Shown here: piece after piece, positions 10,599-35,998 of the stretch
How the letters are laid out: each line of letters begins with the position of its first letter
Position numbering within the stretch: position 1 is the first letter of the stretch
From: Candidatus Bathyarchaeota archaeon
GTDB taxonomy: Archaea > Thermoproteota > Bathyarchaeia > Bathyarchaeales > Bathycorpusculaceae
Direction of reading: 5' to 3'
Length of the DNA: 64,000 nt
Assembly: GCA_963770935.1 (NCBI GenBank)
Contig: CAVYRJ010000003.1
Span: 1-64,000 of the forward strand
Notes under the pieces: model-generated
Told to the model about the DNA's origin: nothing
The model's database searches: none
Seen by the model: only the letters and a program-made list of their open reading frames with translations
Position numbers and translations under genes: made by a program

Positions 10599-10606
10599 GT
10601 TTTAAC

Positions 10607-15045: not shown

Positions 15046-15130
15046 TAGTTATCCCGATTTGTTCATTAATTTTTCTTCTCGAACTATGATTAGGACTGCA
15101 ACTGACAGCTCCTTGCGTTTAGGTGATACC

Positions 15131-16835: not shown

Positions 16836-16878
16836 AATATACATCTGCTCGCTAAAAAGTACATATTCGCTCGGGGGA

Positions 16879-16957
16879 TGGCGGGCCCGCTGGGATTTGA
16901 ACCCAGGATTCTCGGCTCCGGAGGCCGATGCCTTAATCCGTGCTAGACTACGAGCCC
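16879..16957 (-). tRNA. tRNA-Arg(CCG), intronless, CCA encoded
   Basis: Reverse complement GGGCTCG TAGTCTAGCACGGATTAAGGC A TCGGC CTCCGGA GCCGA GAATC CTGGG TTCAAAT CCCAG CGGGCCC G CCA folds as a cloverleaf with anticodon CCG. Confidence 0.97.
16937..16957 (+). repeat. att core copy 1 (tRNA nt 1-21)
   Basis: TCCGTGCTAGACTACGAGCCC, identical to 35433-35453. Confidence 0.93.
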
Positions 16958-17048
16958 TTTTCCATGCTTTCTAGATGGACTACCTTCATTTTTGGTTACT
17001 GTCTAATATGGGTTTTCTGGACTAATTTGATGGATTTCGTTCAACTGA

Positions 17049-18370
17049 TCAGTAAACGTTCTTTTCTTTGCGTAAGTAATGCCTGCCTGTCGTCCGGTTA
17101 TAGTTAAATTCTTGGTAGCCTTCAGCGCCATAGCGACTTATTTTCTCGCTGTAGTCGGGGTCTGTTTCAGATATTTCGATGGGTTCCCATTCTTTATCGC
17201 TACCATAGATTCGTTCTGACAACGGAGCGTAAACTTTGACGTATTTGTCAGAGTTTTCGCCCAGCAAGATAGCGACCGCGTCCGAGTTGCCTTTTAGGTA
17301 TCGCTCAAGGACTGCCCGCCAATGTCGGTTGCTGTAGAAGGTGATCTTGTTAAGTTCTGATATGCCTAAGCGTTTTGATGCTCTGGTTCTGGCTCGTCTA
17401 AAACTCTGTCCTGCTACGTCGGGGTCTTTATAGGTGAATAGCAAATTTAGGTTTCTCTGGTTTCTGTTTTGACATGTTGCAATATTATGTTGTCGAGTTT
17501 TCCATTCTGCCAGCATATCCATAACTTTTACCAACCGACCTTTCAGGTGGATAGTTCTTGTTCGTCCGTGTTTAGCTGGCTTGTTTATGGCGATTGTTTT
17601 TCTTGCAAAGTCGATGTCTTCCCACTCAATTCTTAATGCCTCAATGGGTCTAGCAGCGGTTGCCATCAGTACAAAGCAGAAGACCTGCATTTGAAAGCTA
17701 AATGATGCATAGAGCATTTCCATGTGCTGAGTCTGCGGAATATTGTATTCGGGGGTCCTGTATTCAAAGTGAGGTATTTTGATGTCTTCCATATGTAAGT
17801 ATTTTTTTACAAAGTTGGTGTAGGCTTTGCAGATGTTATTTTTGTTACCGTTAGATTTTATGCTTAGTTCCGGGTGAAAAGCTAGTTTCTGTTTGAAGTC
17901 TTCAGGGTCAAAGAGGTTAACGCCGATTTCAGTTGCAAGCCATTTGAGTCGGATAACGTATTGGGCTAGAGTTAAGTTGTTGATAGGTGTTCTTTCTGGA
18001 TAAAGTGCTTGTAGTCTGCGATCACTAAGTCTATACCGTTTTCTTTTAGTTTTTCTCTCTGCGAAACGCTGAGTTGAGTTTCAGCGGTTTCGGTCAAATT
18101 TTTCGCTTCCTCTGCGCATATTTGGCGTTTACTAGATAAGCTGGTGCCGCTTTTTAATTCCTTCGTTTCAACGGAAAGTTCCTGTTGCAACAACTTTCTA
18201 GCCGCTTCAACCTCTGCAGGGTCACTAAAGCGAAAGTCGCATTGGCGGCAAAGCCAACGCTGAATCGGCTTCCCAAACATCGGGGTCCAGTGGCCGTCAC
18301 GCCAGACATTTTTAGAGGTGCATTTTGGGCAGGTGGGGATTTGGGAGCCGGTGCCAGCGGCAACCCGCAT
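17049..18370 (-). CDS. Tyrosine recombinase/integrase with N-terminal Zn ribbon; frameshift near 17975 (real or error)
   Basis: CPKC...QRWLCRQC; open shifted frame TLAQYVIRLKWLATEIGVNLFDPE...KAYTNF links the two ORFs; TAARPIEA (R), PAKHG (K), YSNRHW (R), LLGENS...VKVY (Y). Confidence 0.85.
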
Positions 18371-18456
18371 AGGGCTAACGCCTTCTTCACTGGAGCGAAT
18401 AATGCCAAATACGCACTCAGAAGCACAACCAGCATTTCCCTCCCCACCCGCTATAA

Positions 18457-18594
18457 CTAAGGAGAACCCTCCTTCTCTTTTTGTTGGGTTTCGGGCGCTT
18501 CATACACCGCCACATAAACGCCCAACTCCGCCACAAACGCCAACGCCCTAACCGTCGGATTCACCCTAACTTGCTCACGGCGGCAAGCCTCCAT
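18457..18594 (-). CDS. Possible 45-aa small protein upstream of the integrase
   Basis: Manual translation [45 protein letters not shown] in a GC-rich patch. Confidence 0.25.
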
Positions 18595-19109
18595 ACGGTG
18601 ATTGATTCGCTTGTTTCAGGCGACTTTAACTGGTTAAACAGTAAAGTGCCGTTGGCAAATTTGCTTATCTCCCATAGTTCAATGGGTAAATCCCTGAAGT
18701 TGATGGCTTGCTTTTGATATTTGGTGAATTGTGGGGAGACAAAGATGACTTTTGATTGTGACCAGTCAACATCATCCCGCTTAAGGCTCGCACCCTTGCT
18801 TTCGTTGTATTCCAGGATAAACTCTGCTTTGTTGTTTAGTAGCAAACCAAGGTAGGCGTAGCCTTGGTCGATTACGCTGAAGCTTTGGTCTATCTTGTAT
18901 TCGATAATAACGAATGATTTGTTTTCATTGTCGAAGGCTAATGTGTCTATTCTTAAGCTACCGAGTTGAAGCTCTGACTTGACAAATTCATAGTCGAAAA
19001 CTTCTTTGAGGCTTGATTCAGTGGTATGCTGAATATCTTTGCGCTCATTCTTGAAGGGAACCTCTTTGATTTTTTCAAGCCTATCGCTCTTTACCGAAAA
19101 TAGCGGCAT
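18561..19109 (-). pseudogene. NucS/DUF91-like PD-(D/E)XK nuclease, probably C-terminally truncated
   Basis: RIDTLAFD...FVIIEYK...VIDQGYAY; family-like sequence stops at [11 protein letters not shown] where base composition changes (~18595). Confidence 0.7.
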
Positions 19110-19330
19110 ATTAGTTAAATGAGGTCTATTTCTTTAAAAAACTTGGCACTTGCGTGCATCCAGATGGTTGCCAATACATATGAATGAGTTGTTGGACGTT
19201 TAGAACTGATTAAGAAAAGGATTTGCTTCCAGGTTCCGGTTTGTTTCACTTTTTCTAAGCGCTTCTTTAGCAAAGTTTTATCCGTTGTTACGGTCAACAA
19301 TTCTACTATCACATTCATGGAGGCGAATTT

Positions 19331-19492
19331 ATGGCAAAATGTCCAAAGTGCGGAAAGGAAGTCGCTCCTAAAAAAACTTGGAAGATGGCTGGCAGGCCTG
19401 ACAAAGCAGGAAAAAGAATGGAATTAACAATCGGTCTGAGCGAGTGCTGCGGGCAAACCTTTAGGACAGTAATCAGCAAGCAGAAAATCTGA
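19331..19492 (+). CDS. Cren7-like small chromatin protein, Cys/Zn variant (53 aa; not in ORF track)
   Basis: MAKCPKCGKEVAPKKTWKMAGRPDKAGKRMELTIGLSECCGQTFRTVISKQKI; PxKxW, IGL and G..FR pattern of Cren7; GGAGGCGA SD; T-rich terminator. Confidence 0.75.
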   Translation: MAKCPKCGKEVAPKKTWKMAGRPDKAGKRMELTIGLSECCGQTFRTVISKQKI

Positions 19493-19690
19493 TTTGCTGA
19501 AAAAATCATAAAACATTCTTTTGTTTTCTTTGGATTTAATTTTTTATCAAATATTAGTTGTGCATCTGTCAGTAGGAATTTATAAAGGAAGCAAAAAACC
19601 ATTGTTTTTTGGTTCCAAAACTTTCATTATCCTGACCTTGCAAGCATAGGCTTAAAGGCAAATTAGGGTAAGTTAACTTGGTGATAGAAT

Positions 19691-19885
19691 ATGTCTTCAG
19701 AGCCAGAGGAAATCCAATATGTTCAAGCTATGTATGCTTTTGAAGAATTTGTAAAGATACTTGTTGTAGAATACCCGTTGGTATTCAAGGATGGATCAGG
19801 AGTCATAGAGATTAATCGTTCAACTAAGAAACAATTCTTCCCCTATGAAGCCTCTATAAATATACGAAAAATAATTGAAAAATAA
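19691..19885 (+). CDS. Small hypothetical protein
   Basis: GGTGA SD, CTTAAA TATA-like box upstream, stop overlaps next start (TAATG). Confidence 0.55.
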   Translation: MSSEPEEIQYVQAMYAFEEFVKILVVEYPLVFKDGSGVIEINRSTKKQFFPYEASINIRKIIEK

Positions 19886-20496
19886 TGGGTAAATTATCTA
19901 AGAATCAGCAAAAAAGAGAATTAGTAGCTGTCGATGTTAAGCAGGCAAAGCAATCAACGTTGGAGGATCTATCTTTTCAGTTTAACATTGATAGAACCAA
20001 AGAGGCAATCAAGCCTTCAAAAGCAATAATTATTAACCGCATCGCTGATACAACCAAAGAAGACGAATTAGCACTTAAAGTTGAATTTAGCTTGCTGCCT
20101 TCAAAAGTGTCATTTTCAAAAATAAATCTCGATTTGTATTTTCAAGAGAACCTGCTCAAATCAATACCCCTTCATATCACTCCAAGTGGCTTGCTGGGCG
20201 ATAATTTGGAGTATCCCTTAGCCTTAGATATGAAAGGAATTGCAGAGGGCAACTATCTAATCAGAGTTGAAATGTTTGAGCCATGGTCTTCTGGTGAAAA
20301 ATTAAACTTCACTTCTAAAGAAATTGCTGTTCAATACGTACCGCAAACTAGAGCTGATAGACTGGTGAAACTACCAACTGTGAAGAGTGTTCCAGGAACC
20401 GATTTAACAGTTGTTTCATCGACCGCTAAAAACATTTATCGAGAAATAGAACAAGACCAAAAACAAGAAGCAATAAGCAAAAGAGATGAATGGTAG
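19885..20496 (+). CDS. Hypothetical protein, probable beta-sandwich domain
   Basis: 203-aa ORF coupled to upstream gene; GNYLIRVEM Ig-like strand pattern. Confidence 0.65.
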   Translation: MGKLSKNQQKRELVAVDVKQAKQSTLEDLSFQFNIDRTKEAIKPSKAIIINRIADTTKEDELALKVEFSLLPSKVSFSKINLDLYFQENLLKSIPLHITPSGLLGDNLEYPLALDMKGIAEGNYLIRVEMFEPWSSGEKLNFTSKEIAVQYVPQTRADRLVKLPTVKSVPGTDLTVVSSTAKNIYREIEQDQKQEAISKRDEW

Positions 20497-20744
20497 TACC
20501 TCAAGACGAGCGCAGGGAAGGAACTTATCAATCATTTCGTATCCAAAACCATTAAGTGCCATTCTTTAGATGGGAAGTGGTGTAGTTCCAATCTCATAAT
20601 TACTTCTTGTAATATCTGTTGTAGTATTGCAACAATCACATGGTCTTTAATAGAATTAAACTCATAGAGGTAGTAACGGGATCAGGATTTTTATGAATTT
20701 TATTAATAAAGTTAAGTGGGATCTGTCTTCATTTGTGATGGCTC

Positions 20745-20815
20745 TTTTTGTTGGGGTTGAAAGAAGGGAAAGAGATAGGCGACTTAAAGAAAGGCTCCTA
20801 CGTTTACAGTGAAAA
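20745..20815 (+). repeat. 71-bp dispersed repeat, copy 1
   Basis: 62/71 ungapped identity (manual count) to 28335-28405. Confidence 0.9.
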
Positions 20816-20957
20816 AAATTGATTCCAAGAACTTTCTGGGAGCGAAGTAGGCAAAATCATAAGAAAGAAACCTAAAAAACTATTGACTTGTCTGTTTGAA
20901 AAAAGGAACAAATTTACAAGGGAGAATTTGTAATTTTTATCATAAGGAGATAGTGAG

Positions 20958-21089
20958 ATGAGTAAGAAAGGAGAGACAGGAGAGCGTGATCGGGGGAAAC
21001 CTCAGCCTCGAAAAAAGAAGGACAGGGATGATGCCCGCAAGAAGAAAAAACTCGACAGAGCTGGAAGACAGCAGTCAAGACCGGCTTAG
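20958..21089 (+). CDS. 43-aa highly basic small protein (not in ORF track)
   Basis: MSKKGETGERDRGKPQPRKKKDRDDARKKKKLDRAGRQQSRPA; AAGGAG SD. Confidence 0.55.
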   Translation: MSKKGETGERDRGKPQPRKKKDRDDARKKKKLDRAGRQQSRPA

Positions 21090-21161
21090 ATAAATTGTTC
21101 TATTGCCAACAGTCAGAGTTAATCTTTGACAAAAAGCGAAAAAAATAGCTATGACTAAACG

Positions 21162-21332
21162 CTACTCGAATTTTCCGCCGCACATTGGGCAGTTTTTCTT
21201 TATTGTGTTTGAAGGTGTTGGAAGTTGGAGTGTGCAGTAGAAGCAGAAGTATATCTTGCATTTTTGGCAGCAGTAGAATCCGCCGCCTATGTATTTTCCG
21301 CAGGCGTCACATGGTCTTGATAGATCAACCAT
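21162..21332 (-). CDS. 56-aa Cys-rich Zn-finger protein (RING/FYVE-like spacing)
   Basis: CDAC, CQKC, CFYC, CPMC. Confidence 0.6.
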   Translation of the reverse strand: MVDLSRPCDACGKYIGGGFYCCQKCKIYFCFYCTLQLPTPSNTIKKNCPMCGGKFE

Positions 21333-21607
21333 AAAACTCACAGGGCTATTTTGCCTAAAGACCATAAAAAGCAAGGCGTTGAAACGACTATACCCGTAAT
21401 GGAGGGATAGGTAAAAGCAAAAATAACGAATTTGCAAATCTGACTTCGCAAGCTTTAGCGAAACCTTCTCAACAGAAGAAACGAATTACTCTTCGCAAAA
21501 AACGTTATCATGCATAATAACAAGTAAACCGATTAAGTTGATTGGAAAAAAAATAAACAGCAAAAAAACAGATTAATTCATGTATTAATGAAGAAATTCA
21601 TGGAAAA

Positions 21608-21796
21608 ATGCCAGTTTACAGCTGCTCATGTGGAGTTAAAATTCTAATTCTTCCAGACTTACCTGAAATGAGTAAAGCCATAAAAAATCATGTGGCTGTA
21701 CATAAAAAGTTATGTGGGCAAATCTTAACTGAAGATAATCTCACACAAGAAATCCTATCAGTCATCATAGAAGCTATATTTGAAACTCGTCACTGA
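21608..21796 (+). CDS. Small C2H2-type Zn-binding protein
   Basis: CSCG...HVAVH. Confidence 0.55.
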   Translation: MPVYSCSCGVKILILPDLPEMSKAIKNHVAVHKKLCGQILTEDNLTQEILSVIIEAIFETRH

Positions 21797-21965
21797 ATAT
21801 ATTAATAAAAGCACTTCAATCAACGACCTGTTGCTTTAGTTAAAAGAAGATCGCTATCAGCTTTTGCAAATTTTTTAATATGAAATTTTTTGTAAGGGAA
21901 TCGTTAAGTTCAGTTTCTGATAATAATATATTGTTCTTAAATTATAACTTAGGAGGAATAAAATT

Positions 21966-22271
21966 TTGGCCAATACATACAATGATCCTAATATTCCAAT
22001 CAAAGTGAAGACTAATCAACATTTTGAAATATCATTGGAATCAAACCCTACAACCGGTTACACATGGAATGCCGAATTTGATACGGCAATGTTAGAACAG
22101 CTCCAGCCAAAAAAATTTATTCTCAGATCAACGGCAATTGGCGGCGGTAGCGAAGAGTTATTTAAATTTAACTCCAAAAAAATAGGTGAAACCACTATAT
22201 TGATGAACTATGGTAGGATGGGAGAAAATACTCCTATAAAAACACAAAAATTCAATGTTATAATTAGCTAA
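21966..22271 (+). CDS. Chagasin-family (I42) cysteine-protease inhibitor
   Basis: LESNPTTGYTW, IGGG, FKF, YGR motifs; AGGAGG SD. Confidence 0.88.
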   Translation: MANTYNDPNIPIKVKTNQHFEISLESNPTTGYTWNAEFDTAMLEQLQPKKFILRSTAIGGGSEELFKFNSKKIGETTILMNYGRMGENTPIKTQKFNVIIS

Positions 22272-22428
22272 TTCGTACACCTTGTGAAATTCTTAGACTT
22301 GGAAAATTTGTGTTGAGCAATGCCATACGTTTTGCCTCAAAAAGCTGCGCCGAATTACCTACTAGCTCAAAATTAAAGCAATAATCGCTCCAGAAATTGA
22401 ATCCAAAATGTTGTTTGATTGGTCAGCG

Positions 22429-25068
22429 CTATGGTCTTTTTTTGATAATCAATAGAGCTGCTATTGCAATAGCTATAATTATGGCGACTCCTGTACCCAA
22501 AATGTACATTTCCACTGGAGACTGGGCAACTGCTGGCTGCGGCGTGGGTGTCAGTGGTGCTTCACCTACTGTTAAATAGGTTGTTGCAGTGGAAGGACCG
22601 TATGATTTGGAGCCTGCGAACATTGCAATTATCTGGTATGTCCCTGGTATTTCTGGGGTATATGGAAGAGCATAATTTCCGCTGATGTCGCTGGTGGTGT
22701 TACCGATGTGGACTAAGTTGCCGTTTGGATCAATAGTGTCCAAGCTAACTGGAACTCCCTTAGCGTTTGCAGGTTTCGGTTGCTGGTGGAACATATATTC
22801 CATCCAGGCTTCCATGTCTTCGTCGGATATTGCTGGTGTACCTTTGAGGATGAAGTCTTTGCTGCCTGCCGCATTGTATCTTCCTGAAGGAGATTGATCA
22901 GTTACGGTGCCTTCTATCAGTATGCGGTCTCCATTTGCTGATACTTTCGGAGATGCAGACACTGTGGTGGCGCTTGGTCCCATGCCATAGCAGTATATGG
23001 AGTTGTCAATTATGCTGTTGCCAACAAGGTAGCCGTCTGCAAGGTTCACAGATCCCCAGTGCTGTATTTGCCATAATAGTTCTCCTGTTTCTGCGTCTAC
23101 GCACCATATGTGTGCGTCGCGTCTTAGAGGCATAGTGGGCGAATGCTCGGTTGTGTAGAGGTATAGTTTTCCGTCTGCAATGCAAGCCATTGAAAGCGGA
23201 GAATTTGGATAGAAAGTTTCTCCTAAGCCATAGAGCGGGGCTGACCAGTTCCAAAGGATATTTCCTGTCTTTATGTCATAGGCGATTAGTTCTCCGCTGT
23301 AGCCGTAGCTAAAGAGTTTCCCTTGATAAATGCTGGTGCTCATGCCATAGTAGTTGAATTGGTCTTCGCTTGCGGTGGGACCCCAAAGCAATTGTCCTGT
23401 GTCAAGGCTGTAAGCCCAACGTGTCCTTGTGTATCTTTCTACAAAAGTAAAGACACCATCTTCAGGGTCTACATTTTGAAGTGAAACTCCGCCTGCTTCC
23501 CCGAGGTATGTGCTGTTAAGATATTTTTCTGCTGATTTTGGCGGTGTAAAGGGGATGTCCCACAGTGTTGTGCCTTCTTGACCTGGTTTTAGACTGTATG
23601 CCCTTAGAAAACCTTGGACTGTTCCTCTGTCGTCATTTAATCCTTGAGTTCCAACAATCACGTATTCATCCTCACGAACTGCTCGAATGGTGCCTGTTTC
23701 GTTGAGAATTGCGTTACGTGGACCCAGAATACTTGAAATCGATACGTTTAATGAGAATCCTTTGTTCCCGTCGAAGGTGTAGTTTAAGATGGGTCTCCAC
23801 ATTAAATAGGCGTTACCGCGGGTGCCAATTATACTTGTGTCATACATAGCTGACAAGATAGCTTGACTTGTGTTCCATACTTGCAAATAGTATTTCGGAT
23901 TTGCTGTGTTTCCAAGGTTGACTGTGTTGTATCGTCGAATGCTTCCGTCCTTGGCGTAAACCGCTGTACCTGCGGAGGAGACGTTAGCTATGCTGGATAG
24001 GTATTCGCCTGTTTCTGCATCAAACAACATCCAGTATTCGGGGGGTGGGTGCAGTTGTGCTCCATAAGTATGGAAAGCCTCCATGTTGGTTTCCAGACTC
24101 ATAGTTGTATACCTGACCAAAAGCAAGTGATTGTATAGGATTGCTCCTGAACTGGCAAAACCACTTCCGATTCCTGAAATGGGACCGGTAGTGTTATGGA
24201 AGTAGAGCGTTTCGCCTGTATAGAGGTCAACAGCCCACCATCCATATCTGGGCGGTGTCAAATCGTTGTAGAAGATTTTTCCGTTAATGATAATGTCGGG
24301 AGAGCCATAGCTTTCGTATGACATTCCTGAATAATACCCAACGCTGCCAAAACGCTCGTCCATGATGCCTCCAGCCCAATGTGGCTTTGACCACATTATG
24401 TGAGCACTTTCAGGTGCTTTGCCAAAGCCGAAATTAGTTGTTGGGCCATTTTGCTGAGCGGCACCGCTGAGCCAGTTAGCTGCGAGCAGATACCAGTCTC
24501 TGTTAGAACCGTATATTGGGCGCGTCCAGTAATCGTTTGGAAGCGGTGTTTCTTGATATTTGGGTATTGCCTCTTGTTGTACAGTAATTATTGTTGGCTG
24601 GCTTGTGCTTGGGGCAAAAGTGTCGTTAATATATGCTAAACCCGGTTGGTTAATAGGTGCAAAGGGTTGACCAGTTAGTGTTTGTCCAGGGAATCTGGCT
24701 ATGACAGTATATATGCCCGTTTGAGTTGGTGTATATAGTGTGAAAGCGCCTCCCACTGGGTCAGAACTGATAGGACCTATTGTTTCTTTGGTCTGGTCAG
24801 GCTTTGTGATGTCCAGGTAGAATTTCCATCTGTCACCATACGTGCCTGTTGATGTGGGCGGTATCCAGTCGATCCAAAAGACAATTAGAGTTTCTTGGCC
24901 CACTCCTATGGTTTCTGGTATGGCGGCAACGTAGCAGTATGTAGGAATATCAGTCCATGGAGGATAATGTGCATTGACAACTGACAAATTTATAAACGGA
25001 AAAGCGATAGCTATTACTAGAAGCAATGTTATCAAAGTAGTTATTGTTTTTCTATTTGCGAATTTCAT
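22429..25068 (-). CDS. Secreted, C-terminally anchored PQQ-like beta-propeller protein (paralog 1); compensated frameshift ~24040-24135
   Basis: Signal peptide, Ig-like N-domain, AxDxxTG..W blades, IADGKLY..TEHSP, C-terminal TM + KKRP. Confidence 0.88.
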   Translation of the reverse strand: MKFANRKTITTLITLLLVIAIAFPFINLSVVNAHYPPWTDIPTYCYVAAIPETIGVGQETLIVFWIDWIPPTSTGTYGDRWKFYLDITKPDQTKETIGPISSDPVGGAFTLYTPTQTGIYTVIARFPGQTLTGQPFAPINQPGLAYINDTFAPSTSQPTIITVQQEAIPKYQETPLPNDYWTRPIYGSNRDWYLLAANWLSGAAQQNGPTTNFGFGKAPESAHIMWSKPHWAGGIMDERFGSVGYYSGMSYESYGSPDIIINGKIFYNDLTPPRYGWWAVDLYTGETLYFHNTTGPISGIGSGFASSGAILYNHLLLVRYTTMSLETNMEAFHTYGAQLHPPPEYWMLFDAETGEYLSSIANVSSAGTAVYAKDGSIRRYNTVNLGNTANPKYYLQVWNTSQAILSAMYDTSIIGTRGNAYLMWRPILNYTFDGNKGFSLNVSISSILGPRNAILNETGTIRAVREDEYVIVGTQGLNDDRGTVQGFLRAYSLKPGQEGTTLWDIPFTPPKSAEKYLNSTYLGEAGGVSLQNVDPEDGVFTFVERYTRTRWAYSLDTGQLLWGPTASEDQFNYYGMSTSIYQGKLFSYGYSGELIAYDIKTGNILWNWSAPLYGLGETFYPNSPLSMACIADGKLYLYTTEHSPTMPLRRDAHIWCVDAETGELLWQIQHWGSVNLADGYLVGNSIIDNSIYCYGMGPSATTVSASPKVSANGDRILIEGTVTDQSPSGRYNAAGSKDFILKGTPAISDEDMEAWMEYMFHQQPKPANAKGVPVSLDTIDPNGNLVHIGNTTSDISGNYALPYTPEIPGTYQIIAMFAGSKSYGPSTATTYLTVGEAPLTPTPQPAVAQSPVEMYILGTGVAIIIAIAIAALLIIKKRP

Positions 25069-25168
25069 TTTTTTTTCCTTTTCCTAAAATTTGTTTGGCA
25101 AGAAAAACCTTTTCGGTAACAGGTTGCCCTGCCAACAAAAAACAGTAGCTTAAAAGAGGTATATTAAA
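25069..25168 (-). promoter_or_regulatory. Promoter and hairpin leader of propeller paralog 1
   Basis: TTTAATAT (25168-61), 24 nt, then GTTGGCAGG GC AACCT-loop-AGGTT TTT CTTGCCAA, then AGGAAAAGGAAAA before ATG. Confidence 0.6.
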
Positions 25169-25327
25169 TTATTCAGAAGTCACGATAAATAATACTTATG
25201 CAATAATATTAATCCCAATTTCATGCCTGCTCGCTTGTTCACTGAACACTAATGTATTGGAGAAAACTGTTATGCGTTTTCGACCTAAGTTGCTTCTTAT
25301 TTCATTATTTATTCTTACGTCTTCTAA

Positions 25328-25510
25328 TGCTAACTCGGACGAGTAGCACACGGTTAGAGACGGCAATTCTCCTAAACCGAAATTTTTTGCAAGCCCTTAA
25401 CCGTGCCGCATGTTGCAAGCGGTATCTATCAGGATTTTATGGGATACCACCTTTAGCTTCGACTTTTATTTTTAGAAAAATCGTCGTAGACTCGTCCTAA
25501 TTTTAGGATT
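25328..25510 (+). ncRNA. Candidate structured RNA or MITE-like element
   Basis: Nested inverted repeats GGACGAGT/ACTCGTCC, CACGGTTA/TAACCGTG, GGTATC/GATACC, CCGC/GCGG in an AT-rich spacer; strand uncertain. Confidence 0.35.
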
Positions 25511-25672
25511 GTTTGGTTTATGTTTTCTTTTTGAATATTTTGACTATTTGATTGTCTTTCAGAAAGAGTAATCACTATTAGTTGCAGGTAATTAGACTTA
25601 AGACTAACTGTTTAGATTCAAGAAAGCTTCATCTATTTTCCGCACATAAGCATAGAGAGTTGACAGGTTAGT

Positions 25673-25770
25673 TTTAAATAATCTTACTTACAGACTTGAT
25701 TCTGTTGGTTGGCGACCTTTCATAGGTTTGCTTACCAAAGGCAAATTATAGGAAAGGAAAAGTAAAAATG
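25673..25770 (+). promoter_or_regulatory. Promoter and hairpin leader of propeller paralog 2
   Basis: TTTAAATA (25673-80), 23 nt, then GTTGGTTGG CG ACCT-loop-AGGT TTG CTTACCAA, then AGGAAAGGAAAA. Confidence 0.6.
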
Positions 25771-25816
25771 AAAATCGCAAAGAAAATGACAATAATTTCT
25801 AACAGACCCAGGAAAT

Positions 25817-28265: not shown

Positions 28266-28334
28266 GCAAAACAAATAAAACTCCTCTTTTTTTGTTTCCG
28301 TTCTACATTGAAATTTTCTGTCTTCGTGTAACTA

Positions 28335-28405
28335 TTTTTGTTGAGCTTGAAAGAAGGGAAAGAGGTAGGCGACTTAAAGAACGGCTTCTCCGTTTATAAT
28401 AAAAA
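28335..28405 (+). repeat. 71-bp dispersed repeat, copy 2
   Basis: Matches 20745-20815; lies just downstream of paralog 3. Confidence 0.9.
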
Positions 28406-28432
28406 GGGGGAAATGTTGTTTGGTTGGTCGTG

Positions 28433-30907
28433 CTATGGTCTCTTTTTAAACAGCATTAATCCGACTACGGCTATTGCAATGATTATAGCGATGGTTGATA
28501 CAGCAATGTACGTCATTATGTCGGTTGTTGTTGCTGTGATTGGTTGGGCTGTAGTGGTTGGTGTTGTTGTGGGTGTAGAGTAGACTGTAAAGGCTGAAAC
28601 TGCGTTGGATGACCCGTAAGAGTTGGATCCGGCAAATGTTGAGATAACTTGGTAGGTGCCTGTTCCAGCTGCAAGCGTATCCGTATTAACTCCTAAACTG
28701 TACTGGCCGCTTTTTGCATCGCTTGTGGCATCGCCAAGGTGTACTAAGTTGCCATTAGGATCAATCGCGTCGATTGACACTGGGACTCCTTTTGCGTTTG
28801 TTGGATATGCTTGTTGCTCGTATAGGTATTGCATGAATCCTTCTTGGCTATCATCAGATACTGCTGGGGCGCCATTTGGGAATAATGCTACTTGAGATGG
28901 ATTCTTTGTACCTGCAGATTCATCTTTCACGTTGCCTGTAATTGTAAAGCTAGAGCCTAGAGAGATGCCGCTTAGTGGTGCTGTAACTGTGGTGGAGCTT
29001 GGTCCCTTTCCGAAACCATAAAGTCGATTGTCATCTCCGTTTAGCGATACTAGGATTCCATCTGCGACAACACAAGGTCCCATGCCTGAACCACGACCTC
29101 CACCTGGACCATTCCACAAGCCTAGCACTTTCCATATGCCCTGCCCTGTTTCAGCATCGATGCAATGCAGTCTTTCTCCTCTAATCGGTGGACTATTTGG
29201 GCTGTGCTCGTTTGTTGCAATATAGATTTTCCCATCAGCAATTGTCATGCCACCAAAGAAGGGATATTGACCATAGGGAGTTTCAAAGCCTCCATCTCCA
29301 GACGCGTATTCCCAAAGTATTTTACCAGTTGCTAGATCATGGCAATGAACTAAACCGTCGTAACCAGCTACATATAGGTGACCGTAAGCTATCACTCCAG
29401 CTGCTGGATAAACAGCCCAACCATTCGTGTAGGGCTCAGAGGGACCCCATATTTGTTTACCAGTGAGCAAACTGTAGGCATTCCATTGCATTGTCTCTTT
29501 AATGAATCTGCAGTAGACGCCTTCACCTATGGGGGATGGGATGTTTCCTCCAGGCGAAGATAGAGATTGGTTTTCCGGGAGCGCTGCGCGGGTCTCGTTC
29601 CAAAGCATTGCGCCTGTGGTTGCGTCGTATCCTATGTCCATTGTACCGGCTGCAGCTAATAGTATGCCGTTGGAATATCCACGCATTGAAGTAATTGCCT
29701 GCGTGCCTGGTACATCGGGTACTGTAACATTCCATTGGATTCCTCTTGACCAGTTATATGTCTGTCCAGCACGAGGTCTCCATTGCCAATAGTTTGTTCC
29801 AGTTGTTCCAGCAAGTAGTTGAGTGTTATAGGAAGAGTTCCACAGGGTAAGCCGATTTTGTGTTCCGCTGAGAATATAGCATAACAGGTCACCAGCTGCC
29901 GATTGCGCGAAAAGGCCAGTGGATGCGTTTGCAAATTCGCATATCAAGTCTCCATTAAACGGGTCATACATTTGCCAGGTTGTGCCAGTCGTACTCCATA
30001 GATACGGTATTACTCCATGTTGGTTTGGTGAGTCATAGGCGTAAAGTTGCCCTCTTGAGATAGTTATGTTCTTCCACCAAATCTCCTCTCCAGTAGTTAG
30101 GTCAACACACATCGTTCCTGCAAACGAAGACGACCCTAATGGTGTGGAATAAAAGAGTCTGCCGTTAATTACTACAGGTGGTATCCATTTGCCTTCATAT
30201 GACAAACCATTGTAATAGTCTATGGAGCCGAATGGACCACCGACTAATCCGCCAAAAGCTATCTCTTTTGTCCATAGAATATGGGAACTGTTCGGTGCTG
30301 AAGTGTAGTTGGCGAATGCTCCTCCGTCTCCAAAAAATCCTCCGCCTCTGAAATCATAGTTGTAACCGCTTTGCAGCCAATTATCAGTTATTGACCACCA
30401 GTCTCTGTTCTCAGCGTTTATTGGGCGAGTCCAGTAATCGGTCGGTAATGGGTTGTTGGGGTATGATGGTATTGGCTCTTCTTGAACTGTCAGTTGCGCC
30501 GTTAAACTCATGCTTGGTTTATAATAGCTATTTGTGAGGTTTTCCCCTGCGAAGAAAGCTTGGAATGTATAATTGCCTATTTGGTCAGGGGTATATTTGG
30601 TGTATCCTGCTGCAACAGTATCTGAGGGGTATGGTCCTAGTGTTTCATTTTTTCCGTCGGGTTTTTGAACTGCGATTGTGAAGCCATGCCAGACATTTCC
30701 GGATGTGGGTGGAATGCTTGAAAGAAAGAAAGCAATTTCTACTTGCTGGCCTTTTCCCACAGTATGGGGGGCAACAGAAATGAAGAGGTAAGTTGCTGTA
30801 TCTGACTTAGCAAGTGGCAAGCTAACAAAGAAGGAAGCAGTTATTAATAGGAAAATACAAAGCGTGACTAAGTTTAGCTTTATTCGTATAAGTTTAGTGT
30901 TTTTCAT
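28433..30907 (-). CDS. PQQ-like beta-propeller surface protein (paralog 3), intact
   Basis: Signal peptide, DYWTRPINAENR, NQHGVIPYLW, IADGKIY..NEHSP, Thr-rich linker, TM + KKRP. Confidence 0.9.
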   Translation of the reverse strand: MKNTKLIRIKLNLVTLCIFLLITASFFVSLPLAKSDTATYLFISVAPHTVGKGQQVEIAFFLSSIPPTSGNVWHGFTIAVQKPDGKNETLGPYPSDTVAAGYTKYTPDQIGNYTFQAFFAGENLTNSYYKPSMSLTAQLTVQEEPIPSYPNNPLPTDYWTRPINAENRDWWSITDNWLQSGYNYDFRGGGFFGDGGAFANYTSAPNSSHILWTKEIAFGGLVGGPFGSIDYYNGLSYEGKWIPPVVINGRLFYSTPLGSSSFAGTMCVDLTTGEEIWWKNITISRGQLYAYDSPNQHGVIPYLWSTTGTTWQMYDPFNGDLICEFANASTGLFAQSAAGDLLCYILSGTQNRLTLWNSSYNTQLLAGTTGTNYWQWRPRAGQTYNWSRGIQWNVTVPDVPGTQAITSMRGYSNGILLAAAGTMDIGYDATTGAMLWNETRAALPENQSLSSPGGNIPSPIGEGVYCRFIKETMQWNAYSLLTGKQIWGPSEPYTNGWAVYPAAGVIAYGHLYVAGYDGLVHCHDLATGKILWEYASGDGGFETPYGQYPFFGGMTIADGKIYIATNEHSPNSPPIRGERLHCIDAETGQGIWKVLGLWNGPGGGRGSGMGPCVVADGILVSLNGDDNRLYGFGKGPSSTTVTAPLSGISLGSSFTITGNVKDESAGTKNPSQVALFPNGAPAVSDDSQEGFMQYLYEQQAYPTNAKGVPVSIDAIDPNGNLVHLGDATSDAKSGQYSLGVNTDTLAAGTGTYQVISTFAGSNSYGSSNAVSAFTVYSTPTTTPTTTAQPITATTTDIMTYIAVSTIAIIIAIAVVGLMLFKKRP

Positions 30908-31033
30908 TTTTTTCTTTTCCTTTCATTTTAAGAAGCAAACTGCTTCCACTCAATTCTTATCTTCTAAAAAGCTAATAAGAAAGTGCTAGGACACGTCGAT
31001 GAAACCTTAATATTGTAAAAAATAAATAGGGAA

Positions 31034-31879
31034 GTGCGCACCAACATGCCTATTCAATCGAGATCCATTTTTCAGGATAAAGGCCTCCAACTTCTTACTA
31101 AACTAGGATTGAGTCCAACGCAAGCAAAACTTTACTTATCACTTCTGGAAAGGAGAAACGCAACAGCATGGGAACTCTCCAAAAGCATGGGTCTCCCAAG
31201 ATCAGAAATCTACAGAGCAATAAGTGAACTGCAACTAAAAGGATTAACCCAAAAAGAAGTAAGTTATCCAAACAAGTTCAGCGCAATCCCAATAATGACC
31301 GGACTCCAAATCCTGCTAAACCATAAAGTTGAACAATGTACAGATTTAGAAAAAAATATCAAGACTTATGTTCAAAAGGCGCAGTCATTTCATGAGGATG
31401 CTCTTCAGGAGCGTGAATACAAGATTACAATTATTGAGGGAAAACATGGAATACTAAATAAAATATCTCAGCAGCACAAAAATGCTCAACGAAGCGTGAA
31501 AGTTCTTACCACTTTTCCAAGATGGCTGCAAATAATCCGTTGCTGCATTAAGGATTATGAGGCAGCGTTAGCGAGAGGTGTAGAATATCGAATAGTCTTG
31601 GAAAATGCCGAAGGTAGATTGATGCTGCCAAAAGAAGTAGAGCTTTTATTATCTAAACCAAATTTTAAACTTGCGACCCATGTGCGCCCTCTCAAGTCTA
31701 ATGGTGCAATTTTTGATGATAAGGAAGCATCCATCAATTTCTTCCCAGGAAAGTCGCTATCGGAATCTCCATTTATTTACACAAACCACCCAAGTTTAAT
31801 ATCGATGCTAGGTGACCAGTTTGAGAAGACTTGGAAGAATAGTTTGAAATACATCTCAACAACTAGACACGAAAAATGA
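31034..31879 (+). CDS. TrmB-family transcriptional regulator
   Basis: LGLSPTQAKLYLSLL, LPRSEIYRAISELQLKGL, C-terminal effector domain (IFDDKEA). Confidence 0.88.
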   Translation: MRTNMPIQSRSIFQDKGLQLLTKLGLSPTQAKLYLSLLERRNATAWELSKSMGLPRSEIYRAISELQLKGLTQKEVSYPNKFSAIPIMTGLQILLNHKVEQCTDLEKNIKTYVQKAQSFHEDALQEREYKITIIEGKHGILNKISQQHKNAQRSVKVLTTFPRWLQIIRCCIKDYEAALARGVEYRIVLENAEGRLMLPKEVELLLSKPNFKLATHVRPLKSNGAIFDDKEASINFFPGKSLSESPFIYTNHPSLISMLGDQFEKTWKNSLKYISTTRHEK

Positions 31880-32032
31880 TCTCATAGTCACATCAGAGAT
31901 TGTGGTTTTGGTAGAGAGATACTTCTCATAAAACAAATATGATAGGTAGGTGTGAGTATATTTTTAGTTTTCAAGTCAGACTATTTTTGGTTCTTTATCT
32001 TTCATCCTCCTTTACTCGCTATTGAACTCAAG

Positions 32033-32512
32033 TTATTTTCCTGACGATTGAGTATATTGCATGGATACGGTTATTCTATTCCGGCTGAGACTATGTTTAA
32101 TTTCGTTGTTTATTCTCGAATTTCCTCTACCTTTACTGGCGTGACCAAAACGAGTTATTTTCCAGTTATCGATGTTTCCTCGAATTATCTGCGGATTGCT
32201 TGTTAGTATGTAGAAGGGTATTTTTGTCTGGGAAGTGTAAAGGTCAGCAACAAAGTTTAGAAGTCGTTTTCCCACGCCGATTCCTTGATAGTCTGGAAGC
32301 ACCACTAAACGGCTGACTCGATAATACTTTGCTTTCATTCTGACGCAAGCCACAGCTATGAACGCTATAGGTTTGTTTTGGAAGATGGCAACGTAGCATC
32401 GGACACCTGCACCCAAGGAGCCGCTTAGATAGTGATAGTTCCGAAACATTTTCCATAGGCTTGGGCCGCACCGATAGATTTGGAGTTCAACGGGCGGCCT
32501 ACTTCTTTTTTT
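32033..32512 (-). CDS. GNAT acetyltransferase domain, probably translated as a -1 frameshift fusion to the upstream ATPase
   Basis: WKMFRNYHYL, RVSRLVVLPDYQGIGVG (motif A); frame open back to the A7 run at 32506-32512. Confidence 0.82.
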   Translation of the reverse strand, partial: KKRSRPPVELQIYRCGPSLWKMFRNYHYLSGSLGAGVRCYVAIFQNKPIAFIAVACVRMKAKYYRVSRLVVLPDYQGIGVGKRLLNFVADLYTSQTKIPFYILTSNPQIIRGNIDNWKITRFGHASKGRGNSRINNEIKHSLSRNRITVSMQYTQSSGK

Positions 32513-33105
32513 CGGCTAAACTCCATCGTGTCAGTGCAGAAAACCCAGTCAGGATCTAGCCAATCAACCACGTCATAGTGGCATGTAACAGCTATGAATT
32601 TCTTGGAGCTTCTGCGAACAGCCTTGCTAATAGCAAATGCGCTAACTTTAGCTATCTCTCTATCTACAACTGAAGTAAACTCATCGAACACAATAAGTGG
32701 CTTCTCTAAACAGAGCGCACGTGCTATATCCACCCGCATCTTCTCTCCCTGACTCAAACAATCGTAAGCCTTCAACCAATCCGGTGGCGAAGCAAAACCA
32801 ACGCTGCCAAGCATCTTGGTAATTTCAGATGTCTCAATTTCCGTAGGAAAGTCATCTAGAACACACTTGTCTTTGTACTCAAAGTCTCGTATGTAAGCGT
32901 CTGGAAAAAGCTGCTTAGCTATACTTGTTTTGCCTGAGCCGCTGCGCCCAACGATAACGCCAACTTGCCAGTCAAAATCCTCAAGCGGCAAGGACCCTCT
33001 GAACCGCTTCTCCAATTTAACATCGCTTAGCGTGTAGCTGCCGACGACGCTTTGTGCTCGGAAGCTGTCGCTTTCTTCCCAGCGTTTTACAATGTCAAAA
33101 TCCGT
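32425..33105 (-). CDS. Soluble ABC-type ATPase of virus/mobile-element type (start uncertain: ACG 33105 or TTG 33015)
   Basis: GRSGSGKT Walker A, LSQGE signature, IVFDEF Walker B, VTCH H-loop; frame open upstream as TDFDIVKRW...SFRAQSV. Confidence 0.85.
   Translation of the reverse strand, partial: TDFDIVKRWEESDSFRAQSVVGSYTLSDVKLEKRFRGSLPLEDFDWQVGVIVGRSGSGKTSIAKQLFPDAYIRDFEYKDKCVLDDFPTEIETSEITKMLGSVGFASPPDWLKAYDCLSQGEKMRVDIARALCLEKPLIVFDEFTSVVDREIAKVSAFAISKAVRRSSKKFIAVTCHYDVVDWLDPDWVFCTDTMEFSRKKEVGRPLNSKSIGAAQAYGKCFGTITI
32464..32512 (-). promoter_or_regulatory. Candidate -1 programmed ribosomal frameshift signal
   Basis: A_AAA_AAA heptamer in the correct phase, 6-nt spacer, stem GGCCGCCCG-17nt-CGG(T)GCGGCC. 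Confidence 0.65.
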
Positions 33106-33641
33106 AGCTTATACCCCTCCGCTTTTAATTTCTCAAAATATTCTTTTTGCTGGACCTCGCTTCGGCACTCAATTATAAGCTCGTAAGTTTCAGGAACCGA
33201 AAAAGAGACCTCTCGGTCATCTACCTCTATGGGGAGCTTTTCGCCGACGGATTGAAGGAATAACTTTAATTCCTCTTTTTCTCCCTCGTCAATTATGCGC
33301 AGGTACTCGGCACTATCCATCTCCCTGTTATGCTTGCCCCGTAGCTTGTTTAGCACCTGCCGAAGCAAGCGGCGATCAACATCCTTAACTGGCAAGCGAA
33401 TGACACTGCACTCGGTCATGCCAAGCTCCTTCATAGCCGTAACCCGCTGCTGACCATCAGCCACCAAAAGCTCACTGTTGGTAACGACGGGAACTATGTC
33501 TCCCCATCTTCTAATAGAAGCTTTCAAGCGGTCAAGCTGGGCAAGACTCATCCTGTTAGGATTGTCTTGGTCAAACTTGAGATCACTGATCTTCACACGT
33601 TCCGACATTGGAATCGGAATTTCTTTTTCAAGCTCACTCAT
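33087..33641 (-). CDS. ParB/Srx N-terminal-domain protein
   Basis: NPNRMS...LKASIRRWGDIVPVV...VADGQQRVTA. Confidence 0.85.
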   Translation of the reverse strand: MSELEKEIPIPMSERVKISDLKFDQDNPNRMSLAQLDRLKASIRRWGDIVPVVTNSELLVADGQQRVTAMKELGMTECSVIRLPVKDVDRRLLRQVLNKLRGKHNREMDSAEYLRIIDEGEKEELKLFLQSVGEKLPIEVDDREVSFSVPETYELIIECRSEVQQKEYFEKLKAEGYKLRILTL

Positions 33642-34300
33642 TCCGCTTTCTCTTCCATTTTCTTATCTAAACCTTTAATGAGGGCTTCCCGTTCCTCTGG
33701 ATGCTCTTCATAGTACTCCCTAATTTTACGTGAAATAAACTCGTCATGGAACCCCTCGAACTTCTCAAAACTCTTCTCAGTGAACACGCCCTCGGGATAG
33801 ATCGCTTTTATTTTTGCGTCTACCGCGTCCCACCAAGCAAAATCGTCAAACGCGGGGTCGTCCTCGTTTCGGTTATTGTTGTATTCATAATCTTCTATCA
33901 GGCAGTCGTGGTTGAATTTCTTCATCTCATGGAAGAACCACATAACTCTGAGCATAACGCGTGAGTCTTCGCCTTTGGGATATGCGGCAGCGAACCATTT
34001 ATAGAGTAAGCGTTCTAAGCGGTAGCTTAAAAATTCGTGTGATTGTTCAAGAATGGCGTTTTCCTGGTCTGTTAGTTTGCTTAGAAGCTGTTTGGCTGCC
34101 TCGTTTTGTTGTTCCGGGCTTGTGCCGCTGTTTATTATGGCTTGTGCGTCGTCTTTGAAAGATGCTCTTATTTTCTGTGCGTGGTCATGCAGGAGTTGTT
34201 CGTCTAAGTTGCCAATGTTGAGCATTATGTCGTCGTCTTCTGGGGGAAAGTCTAAAATGTTATCTTCTAATTCGTGGAGTTTACGGCTTAACAAATTCAT
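33638..34300 (-). CDS. Acidic hypothetical protein
   Basis: 220-aa ORF overlapping both neighbours (TGATG, ATGA coupling). Confidence 0.7.
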   Translation of the reverse strand: MNLLSRKLHELEDNILDFPPEDDDIMLNIGNLDEQLLHDHAQKIRASFKDDAQAIINSGTSPEQQNEAAKQLLSKLTDQENAILEQSHEFLSYRLERLLYKWFAAAYPKGEDSRVMLRVMWFFHEMKKFNHDCLIEDYEYNNNRNEDDPAFDDFAWWDAVDAKIKAIYPEGVFTEKSFEKFEGFHDEFISRKIREYYEEHPEEREALIKGLDKKMEEKAE

Positions 34301-34740
34301 CAGAACCCTCTCCTAGCCCTTTCTGTCTTGGTTTTTTCGCCATCAGGTTGCGGTTTGGGAATCAGTATGCTATTTTTTAGCTTCTCCTCTAAGGCTATCA
34401 CTCTGAACTCTAACTCCTCGTCTTTGAGGAGGTTGCCGTAGGTTGAGACGGCTGAAACCATGACCCTTGCCCAGCCTTGTTTTGCTTTGTCGCTGTTTCC
34501 AGCACCATGAATTTTTTTGTGGGAGAGGCTTAAAACGCCGTCTAAAACGCGAAACAACGTATTTCTGCGGTCTTTAGCTGAACGGTTTAATGATGGTTTC
34601 TTATTGGTTTTAGCTTCAACTTCACCCAAGCTACACTGCGCCTTCTTGAGTTTGGCTCCAACACCAATGGAGAAAAGACAACGCAAAGAGTTAGCTCTCA
34701 AGACACCACAAAACAAGACAACAAATAGTGACTTACACAA
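34300..34740 (-). CDS. Hypothetical basic/helical protein, first gene of the ParB operon (start uncertain)
   Basis: WARVMVSAV...ELEFRVIALEEKL coiled-coil end; stop overlaps next start. Confidence 0.55.
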   Translation of the reverse strand: MCKSLFVVLFCGVLRANSLRCLFSIGVGAKLKKAQCSLGEVEAKTNKKPSLNRSAKDRRNTLFRVLDGVLSLSHKKIHGAGNSDKAKQGWARVMVSAVSTYGNLLKDEELEFRVIALEEKLKNSILIPKPQPDGEKTKTERARRGF

Positions 34741-35432
34741 TCCAAGAAATAAATTTTCCTATAAGTTTAAAATTTAACAAAAAATAATGTTGGTTTGTAA
34801 ACACTTTGAAACTTAATAAGAAAGACAAAGTACCACTTCTACGCGCTTTTTTTAGAATCATATTATTGGTAGTTGTATACTCTTGTCAATCACAAAACCT
34901 AATGAGTAAAAGAACCAAGGTATATGCAGTGGTTTCAATGAGCGTATCAAAACCTAATATAATCCAGAATGAAAAGGAGATTGCTTCTAAATCCGACGTT
35001 ATGCAACAGTCCAAAAACGACATAATGTTATTTAATAATGGAAAATTCATCATGGTTCAAGACAAAGAAGATCCCAAGCTATCTATAATGAAGTTCGAGT
35101 CAAAGCTCAAACAAGTATTGATGATTCCAGAAAAATGAATAAATCATTTTATTTTTGTCAAGCTCTTATGGCTTTTTGAAACTAGTGTCTTTCCTTGCCA
35201 GATTCGATGACATGCCTAAAAAAACAGGGTTGTGCGGGAGATTTTGCCACTTTAACCTTATAGAAGCCATAAAAGACTATTGAACGCTATTTCCTTTTCC
35301 TTAATTTTCGTCGTTCAGTTCTGTAATGTGCGTAAAGACTATTTCTAAGAATAAGTAGTCACAAAAAAAGAAATGGAAGATGCGTTTACACAGAGAGGAA
35401 AAACTGTTGGCGATGTCACCACTTGAAGTCAT

Positions 35433-35453
35433 TCCGTGCTAGACTACGAGCCC
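35433..35453 (+). repeat. att core copy 2 (displaced 5' tRNA fragment)
   Basis: Identical to 16937-16957; TTTAAA at 35483-88 on the upstream side is the probable native tRNA TATA box. Confidence 0.93.
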
Positions 35454-35494
35454 ACAACGCCAAACAAAACAGGATTTATCGATTTAAAGATAAC

Positions 35495-35998
35495 TTACTC
35501 CTGGATTAATTCTTGGTCTATCCACCAAGCCTTCTTCTTGCCCGACCTCTCGCCAGCACAATATTCAATTATTGATTTTCCAACTTGTTTTTTAGAGTTC
35601 TTCTGGATTTTTCTAAGCCTGTTTAAGATAAGCCACCGGTTTGTTTTAATGTAATCTGCTAATTCCGGAGTAGTGGCGGATTTGTAGTGCATTAGATATT
35701 CCATGATTTTATGGTCTAACTCGTCAATGCAGAAGGAATGGGGATTGATTTTTCCATGTTGGAAAGTGAGGATTTCTAGGTCAGCGAGAGATTTTCTGAT
35801 TTGTCCAAATTCCTGCTCGATTTTGCCCATTCGCTCCTGGAGAGCTAAGAGTTTGTCTGCTTTGGGTGTTTTCTGCAGTTTTTCGCTTATGGCTTCGCGG
35901 ATAAAGGTACTTCTGTCGCCTTCAGGGATACGTAACGCCATTTCCTGGTAGACGTCTTCAGGGATTTTCACCGAGACAATTCTGACTTCGCTCATCAC
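35495..35998 (-). CDS. Ribbon-helix-helix plus wHTH DNA-binding protein
   Basis: IVSVKIPEDVY...RSTFIREAI; coiled coil; ELDHKIMEYL...TTPELA. Confidence 0.75.
   Translation of the reverse strand: MMSEVRIVSVKIPEDVYQEMALRIPEGDRSTFIREAISEKLQKTPKADKLLALQERMGKIEQEFGQIRKSLADLEILTFQHGKINPHSFCIDELDHKIMEYLMHYKSATTPELADYIKTNRWLILNRLRKIQKNSKKQVGKSIIEYCAGERSGKKKAWWIDQELIQE

Follow-up and report, generated by a model that had tools for sequence, protein, structure and literature searches.

Classical integrases that use transfer RNA (tRNA) genes as attachment (att) sites perform conservative site-specific recombination that restores the tRNA gene, are encoded next to the att site, and leave the native promoter attached to the tRNA. 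Williams is said to have listed the anticodon loop, the T-loop and the 3' end as the sublocations of integration in 2002, and in the same year Zhao and Williams reportedly described a bacterial element that "reverses the usual target gene orientation". Elements of the pNOB8 type target the 3' part of the tRNA. Here, we examine a 64-kb stretch of genomic DNA (64,000 nucleotides, hereafter the window; contig CAVYRJ010000003.1 of a Candidatus Bathyarchaeota archaeon) in which positions 16958-35453 are very probably an integrated element of a Bathyarchaeia-specific family, with the 5' end of tRNA-Arg(CCG) as its att core, the native promoter of that gene displaced, and transcription of the tRNA presumably provided by the element. 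Like the classical systems, it would rely on conservative recombination restoring the tRNA and has its integrase gene beside the att site, but it does not keep the native promoter attached.

Such an arrangement is rare but already described, and what is new here is an undescribed lineage of Bathyarchaeia integrases. Section 18 of a 2021 review states that pTN3-like integrases, of the suicidal SSV type, are the only archaeal integrases to use a tRNA gene's 5' half (PMC8371274). In pTN3 and TKV4 of Thermococcales, as in the window, a tRNA gene provides its 5' part as attB, and the full tRNA is rebuilt but loses its promoter; in those elements it is expressed from element DNA (PMC8371274, PMC5495485), and one figure legend describes the rebuilt tRNA-Leu as "separated from its original promoter" (PMC5495485, S2 Fig legend). 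Among further rare 5' cases are CalSub-E1 of Ca. Caldiarchaeum and an element from bacteria (Zhao and Williams 2002), both listed elsewhere (PMC6563490, section 7). A preliminary description of the window had presented 5' targeting with promoter loss as a departure from the norm; the arrangement is indeed rare, but because pTN3-like elements and a few others had put the principle in print (PMC8371274, PMC5495485, PMC6563490), the surprise is smaller. The literature searched contained no account of this clade of integrases, of a second, non-suicidal archaeal lineage that behaves in this way, or of tRNA 5' ends as targets in Bathyarchaeia, and the supplementary att-site tables of two of these papers (PMC6563490, PMC8371274) might list more cases.

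The tRNA genes of the window were called with ARAGORN, which returned tRNA-Arg(CCG) (16879-16957, minus strand) as the only one. The first 21 nt of this gene had been noted to recur elsewhere in the window, and an exact second copy of the 21-mer at 16937-16957 is present at 35433-35453, also on the minus strand. These are the only two matches in the window, and the number expected by chance is 0.00 (none in 100 dinucleotide-preserving shuffles). The repeat, which we refer to as the att core, corresponds to tRNA nucleotides 1-21 on the minus strand, comprising the 5' strand of the acceptor stem, the 5' strand of the D-stem and most of the D-loop; one border coincides exactly with tRNA +1 and the other lies inside the D-loop. 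A tyrosine integrase gene, co-oriented with the intact tRNA, has its stop codon at 17049-17051, leaving an element-supplied spacer (16958-17048, minus strand) of precisely the 91 nt previously given. At the other end, the displaced 21-nt fragment is preceded by what is left of the native tRNA promoter region (35454-35494, minus strand), in which the TTTAAA box reported earlier is found at 35483-35488, 29 nt from the start of the fragment; no TTTAAA occurs in the 60 nt upstream of the intact tRNA +1. Promoter and stub are thereby set apart from the remainder of the tRNA by 18,496 bp. Beyond the promoter region lies a conserved chromosomal gene (35495-35998, minus strand) that encodes a protein of 167 amino acids with no Pfam family.

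Homologues of this 167-amino acid gene were found in 37 of the 41 genomes searched, the source genome (G000) included, and we fetched 19 of the loci from other species of the genus. If an element had been inserted, relatives were anticipated to show the gene directly before an intact tRNA-Arg(CCG), and this is the case at 16 of the 19 loci, where the tRNA is located approximately 45 nt downstream of the gene. A TTTAAA box is found 26-32 nt upstream of tRNA +1 at 15 of 18 loci, including 13 of the 16 with an intact tRNA and both of those with a stub only. Because the loci of the relatives keep an intact tRNA together with TTTAAA, whereas the box in the window precedes only the fragment, the ancestral order, judged by this comparison, is gene, promoter, tRNA, and the native promoter is displaced in the window. 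The earlier proposal that the element targets the 5' end of the tRNA and parts it from its promoter is therefore borne out by the repeat and the empty sites alike. Of the other three loci, one (L010, genome G011) has the stub followed by foreign DNA, the contig of another (L018) stops exactly at the last base of the stub, and at the last (L016) neither tRNA nor stub was seen. In run X5, one DNA contig follows the tRNA as far as 16957 and then runs on in letters resembling, by eye, 35454 onward, a hint of an empty site in a related population. Five of the relatives' loci (L002, L003, L007, L008 and L011) carry an insert of approximately 21 nt just past the anticodon of tRNA-Arg(CCG), presumably an intron, that the window gene does not have.

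The site is also occupied in genome G011, where a 21-nt stub stands behind the native promoter and the intact tRNA follows 19.7 kb further on, preceded by an integrase gene. Only approximately 1.2 kb of this element resembles that of the window, namely the 3' two-thirds of the integrase gene, the spacer and the tRNA (72.75% nucleotide identity over 1211 nt, and 74% amino acid identity over a 247-residue tblastx match in the catalytic open reading frame (ORF)), and its cargo is unrelated. A shared integration module with unrelated cargo indicates that one site has been used by different elements. The integrase-side core of G011, in the rebuilt tRNA (L021 19771-19847), contains one extra A in its D-loop part that is seen neither in the stub nor in the genes of other species. 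One reading of this is that the 5' part of the rebuilt tRNA is derived from the element, with the crossover located 3' of approximately nucleotide 15; a later mutation or a sequencing error would give the same picture. It could also be argued that no integration took place and that the repeat arose by chance or from a chimeric assembly. Given the chance expectation above, the empty sites in 16 of 19 relatives, and the occurrence of the same architecture in at least seven other genomes, several of them on contigs of 0.5-2.5 Mb, this explanation is effectively refuted and we give it practically no credence.

Integrase homologues are widespread, with a match at E <= 1e-10 in 170 of the 301 genomes of the order. 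Of the loci fetched, 20 encode an integrase that shares at least 36% identity with the G011 protein; a co-oriented tRNA gene lies immediately downstream in 18 of these, and two have no tRNA. A second scan, of genomes that overlap those of the first, returned the same arrangement at 31 of 37 loci from metagenome-assembled genomes (MAGs) of Bathyarchaeia; of the six exceptions, three end no more than approximately 160 nt from the integrase, and the other three have distant homologues (22-39% identity). The tRNAs targeted by close homologues are Arg-CCG, Arg-TCG and Pro-GGG, and one gene that ARAGORN called Pro-CGG was reinterpreted from its sequence as an intron-bearing Arg-TCG. A survey of integrase homologues for 5' tRNA duplications had been proposed as a check, and when ten loci were extended upstream by up to approximately 40 kb, six contained an exact 18-21-nt copy of the tRNA start at a distance of 7.7-34.9 kb. 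In a maximum-likelihood tree of 25 rows (midpoint-rooted, for drawing only), all 5'-type integrases form one clade of 14 rows with support of 100/99, and their sister group is made up of homologues that converge with the 3' end of tRNA-Leu, tRNA-Cys or tRNA-Phe. The source genome itself encodes a paralogous Zn-ribbon integrase of the sister clade (contig C10, 54196-55287; approximately 26-29% identical), which converges with the 3' end of tRNA-Leu(CAG) (C10 53933-54020) in the classical orientation.

The catalytic frame of the window integrase (17049-18080, minus strand, stop to stop) matches the Phage_integrase family PF00589 at 41.3 bits, with a cut-off of 27.1, and the intact G011 homologue does so at 46 bits; the window protein also matches the phrog_1 integrase (1.4e-16). 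In G011 the integrase gene is uninterrupted, a single frame that spans 479 codons between stops and 474 counted from the first ATG, with a CPxC...CxxC Zn ribbon followed by a linker, a core-binding-like region and the PF00589 domain. The catalytic residues of the window protein are R (AARPIE), K (PAKHG), YSNR, LGE and the nucleophile Y (KVYAP). R (AARPIE), K (PAK), YxxR and the nucleophile Y (YA) are conserved in a 17-row alignment and invariant in 11 aligned homologues, the YxxR variants over all aligned rows being FYSNRHW, FYSCRYW and FYTCRYW. At the H/W position, the window and four intact relatives whose target is tRNA-Arg(TCG) have E (LGE), and G011, G252 and the deeper branches have LGH. 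The preliminary description had called the integrase atypical on account of its N-terminal Zn ribbon and its YSNRH and LGE motifs. All three features are present in the window, but R...YxxR...Y is the signature of pNOB8-type archaeal integrases given in section 8 of the review (PMC8371274) and LGE recurs in intact relatives, so the enzyme is typical of its lineage. The pNOB8 type resembles the window integrase in a second respect, in that its gene is not split by integration (PMC8371274, section 8); the ORF is whole in the integrated state in G011, G252 and others, and the core in the window lies 91 nt past the stop codon.

The contrast with integrases of the pTN3 type is pronounced. Those are of the suicidal SSV type; their 41-bp attP is located within the ORF of the integrase, integration splits this ORF, and they carry a KxxR signature. 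In the clade of the window integrase, the core is 20-21 bp long and lies 45-100 nt beyond the stop codon, the gene is whole in relatives, YxxR is found throughout, an N-terminal Zn ribbon is present, the hosts belong to another phylum and the targets are different (Arg and Pro). When solved structures and plasmid and phage collections were searched by sequence, there were at most weak matches to the catalytic domains of bacterial integrases; tblastn of the plasmid collection, in which the presence of pNOB8 was unchecked, gave one weak bacterial match and no archaeal plasmid. In public databases the family is named simply "integrase" or "tyrosine-type recombinase", chiefly in MAGs of Bathyarchaeia. 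The clade represents a second, unrelated lineage of archaeal integrases that target the 5' end of tRNA genes, one that is non-suicidal and combines a Zn ribbon and the pNOB8-type signature with a 20-21-bp core. It also yields a sequence rule by which islands can be delimited in these uncultured archaea, with integrase, spacer and tRNA at one end and 5' stub, palindrome and oligo-T at the other.

The repeat, the empty sites, the independent occupancy and the association of integrases with tRNA 5' ends across the clade are all direct observations; beyond them, we propose the following course of integration. The integrase, predicted to combine a Zn ribbon at its N terminus with a core-binding region and an R..K..YxxR..Y tyrosine-recombinase domain, would take an attP core immediately 3' of its own gene and recombine it with the initial 20-21 bp of a gene for tRNA-Arg or tRNA-Pro. 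Since this core coincides with the 5' end of the tRNA, the chromosomal promoter and the 21-nt stub would stay at the far end after integration, and the complete tRNA would be rebuilt at the integrase end, behind element DNA. Archaeal tRNA genes need an upstream promoter composed of a TATA box and a TFIIB recognition element (BRE), and the rebuilt tRNA must therefore be transcribed from element DNA; supply of its transcription by the element appears logically required by the arrangement of the sequences. Transcription would most likely start from a short A/T-rich box 30-37 nt upstream of +1, and read-through from the integrase gene may also contribute, with RNase P trimming either transcript. 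At the far end, oligo-T tracts just inside the element may stop transcripts of the orphaned native promoter.

The candidate box is one of three blocks in the spacer that are common to 13 close relatives (positions are given in window coordinates and relative to tRNA +1). The first, CCATATTA, lies at -54 to -47 (17004-17011) and is the promoter candidate of the preliminary description, which had placed GAAAACCCATATTAG at 17017-17003 on the minus strand, where it is indeed found. The second, at -37 to -30, reads CTAAAATG in most relatives, GTTTAAGG in G252 and G147, and CAAAAATG in the window (16987-16994). The third, TCCATCYAGAAAGYATGGAAAA, adjoins tRNA +1 and has the form TCCATCTAGAAAGCATGGAAAA in the window (16958-16979). 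The second block, nearer the tRNA, is conserved at least as well as CCATATTA, and in the relative with the shortest spacer (G259, approximately 45 nt) the first block is lost and the box near -30 is kept. In about half of the 34 tRNA genes of the source genome, the best TATA-like motif lies 27-41 nt from +1, so the box at -37 to -30 sits at the TATA distance of the genome's own tRNA genes. A weight matrix built from these promoters gave 9.0 bits for GTTTAAGG in G252 and G147 and 2.3-5.5 bits for CTAAAAT boxes; the matrix is crude, with several best matches at implausible distances, and its scores are a rough guide. A bacterial promoter and terminator scan was set aside as not applicable to archaea.

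Several observations weigh against parts of this interpretation. No repeat was found within 18.7-40.6 kb, with up to three errors allowed, in four of the ten extended loci, two of which carry integrase pseudogenes and two intact integrases. There was likewise no free or circular attP: a 30-nt degenerate pattern consisting of spacer end, core and a non-tRNA base was present in none of the viral contigs (0), and the six metagenome stretches in which it occurred each have one core, no terminal overlap and no integrase by tblastn, and are read as probable remnant or tandem junctions and not as free elements. With respect to the promoter, the crude matrix gave no positive match in the window spacer (best scores -0.4 and -0.6 bits), CAAAAATG is a weaker form of the relatives' CTAAAATG or GTTTAAGG, and the subclade that targets Pro-GGG has no clear A/T box near -30, so that support for a dedicated promoter is not uniform. 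Alternatively, the integrase could bind to the conserved spacer blocks. Finally, four public runs, all of them contigs, contain at most 0.13 of the sampled words, with integrase and spacer almost uncovered.

Some of these points fit a different account, in which the tRNA has no promoter of its own and is made solely by read-through from the integrase gene, being released by RNase P and tRNase Z, and in which the spacer blocks bind integrase. The tRNA-sense strand of the window spacer has no run of five or more T between integrase stop and tRNA, so that read-through is possible for want of an oligo-T terminator, and both the missing matrix match and the Pro-GGG subclade are as this account would have them. 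Yet in G280 and G006 the boxes are separated from the integrase stop by a stretch with a T6 run, which would terminate an integrase transcript, G252 and G147 have the strong TATA-like GTTTAAGG at the canonical distance, and tying an essential tRNA to an integrase promoter, usually weak or regulated, would seem costly. We regard exclusive read-through as a serious possibility, although not a probable one, and favor a dedicated but weak promoter, possibly supplemented by read-through.

A further account holds that the rebuilt tRNA is silent or dispensable, with CGG read by another tRNA-Arg, and that the island inactivated a redundant gene. CGG is the rarest Arg codon of the genome, making up 8.3% of Arg codons (3.4 per 1000) in 610 ORFs of at least 300 amino acids. 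This agrees with a preference of integration for rare-codon tRNAs given in section 18 of the review (PMC8371274). Against silence, the window tRNA is identical to the tRNA at the empty sites of several relatives, and the exact preservation of the tRNA 5' part and of the upstream boxes across the clade argues for selection on a working tRNA. The assembly also has neither a second Arg(CCG) gene nor a detectable Arg(TCG) gene, a weak argument as the assembly is just 91% complete. A silent tRNA is, in our judgment, very unlikely, and transcription from a weak promoter in the element remains the explanation that we prefer.

The far end of the element (35363-35432, minus strand) also belongs to the conserved parts, with an arm that is common to all eight elements for which both ends are available (the window, G011, G252, G016, G239, G240, G147 and G162). 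In tRNA sense, the core is followed after approximately 10-30 nt by the palindrome GGTGAYRTCACC, which is degenerate in G239, then by a short T run, a GCAAAACGCA-like sequence and CCCTTTTTCTTTTTTT. In the window the arm consists of the palindrome GGTGACATCGCC (35420-35409), T5 (35403-35399), GTAAACGCA and CCATTTCTTTTTTT, the last with T7 at 35369-35363. Archaeal terminators are oligo-T runs, and for this reason we infer that the T tracts at the far end stop transcripts from the orphaned native promoter; the tracts of the arm could just as well serve as binding sites of the arm type. The stub of G162 (L037/L065) comes after a spacer like that on the integrase side. Both there and at the metagenome loci L073-L078, such a spacer abuts a core that a far-end arm follows, an arrangement that points to tandem arrays or to remnants of successive integrations at one tRNA.

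Taken further, the two conserved ends could be a purpose-built module with which this element lineage takes over transcription of tRNA-Arg(CCG/TCG) and tRNA-Pro(GGG), by means of its own promoter box and a palindrome/oligo-T terminator that silences the host promoter. This is speculative and on balance unlikely. If it were true, supply of a rare-codon tRNA would become a function of the element, tunable through regulation linked to the integrase, and would give the element a hold on its host, since imprecise loss of the element would destroy the sole promoter of the tRNA. Regardless of this, occupied and empty sites together offer natural promoter replacements of one tRNA gene for the study of archaeal tRNA promoters and terminators.

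The copy in the window does not have the features of an active element, as its integrase is frameshifted and no circular attP was found. The part encoding the Zn ribbon (CPKC...CRQC; 17972-18370, minus strand) and the catalytic frame are in different frames that overlap by approximately 108 nt, owing to a deletion of 1 nt near 17985, as judged from the intact gene of G011. The window integrase, as read from the assembly, is thus interrupted by a frameshift, a feature absent from the preliminary description, which could be real or an assembly error. The cargo (18371-35408) is a mosaic. It includes a PDC-S18 defence-candidate fragment (170 of 302 profile positions), three large beta-propeller/immunoglobulin-like proteins (one encoded in two pieces, 25817-27775 and 27678-28265), a chagasin-type inhibitor, a TrmB regulator, a protein with a ParB-like nuclease domain, and a GNAT and ABC-ATPase pair (32425-33015 and 32033-32449) that jointly match one family, phrog_11143, and so represent a split homologue. 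No capsid, replication or conjugation gene was recognized among the cargo. With a broken integrase frame and at least two split cargo genes, the window copy is probably an immobilized, decaying island, unless these are assembly errors.

The latter would mean that the element is intact and mobile, and it finds some support outside the element, where a UvrD-like helicase gene is also split (12428-13615 and 10607-12280), as a general indel rate would have it. The integrase deletion is not within a homopolymer, integrases with multiple stops are present in G147, G106, G114 and G236, so that decay of these islands is common, and the split helicase too lies in a variable, probably accessory stretch. 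We consider assembly error a doubtful explanation for the broken genes, though one with some weight, and retain that of a decaying island. Counting overlapping ORF pairs as a gauge of assembly indels was uninformative, as it missed even the known pairs.

As a unit, the cargo is found in none of 119 other genomes of the genus, and only modules of it recur. The chief one, a 2.7-kb module (window approximately 32054-34724), encodes the GNAT protein, the ABC-type ATPase, the ParB-like nuclease protein and two unknown ORFs on the minus strand. It recurs at 70-86% nucleotide identity in many members of the genus, which often carry more than one copy. Within the window, 22429-25068 and 28433-30907 encode paralogous large surface-type proteins, approximately 6 kb apart, with stretches that are 73% identical, and a 74-nt non-coding repeat (86% identical) is found at 20742-20815 and 28332-28405. 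The RNA libraries X2 and X3 include contigs that cover 22.4-25.1 kb with a likeness of 90-99%.

The stretch 3' of the tRNA (8970-16878) is variable and contains the split UvrD-like helicase gene and ORFs without family. The block of synteny on this side stops approximately 1 kb from the tRNA in G010, approximately 4.4 kb from it in G003 and 7.9 kb from it in the window. A search of the window for a repeat of the tRNA 3' end found none, and by that test the variable 7.9 kb is not an att-flanked island.

The source genome contains a second island of the type found at tRNA-Arg(CCG), on contig C1 (184422-203396; L121), in which nucleotides 1-21 of tRNA-Arg(GCG) recur at C1 203376-203396 behind a TTTAAAT box, the intact gene being located at C1 184422-184500. 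Its arm, GGAGACATCACC followed by CCCTTTTTATTTTT, resembles the far-end arm described above. The island has no Zn-ribbon integrase; in its place is a short, distant PF00589 ORF (L121 90-896, E 1e-6), which either crosses the tRNA in antisense or points away from it. Among its cargo are a TFIIB homologue, a DEAD/MZB helicase and the 2.7-kb module of the window in a copy that is 86% identical.

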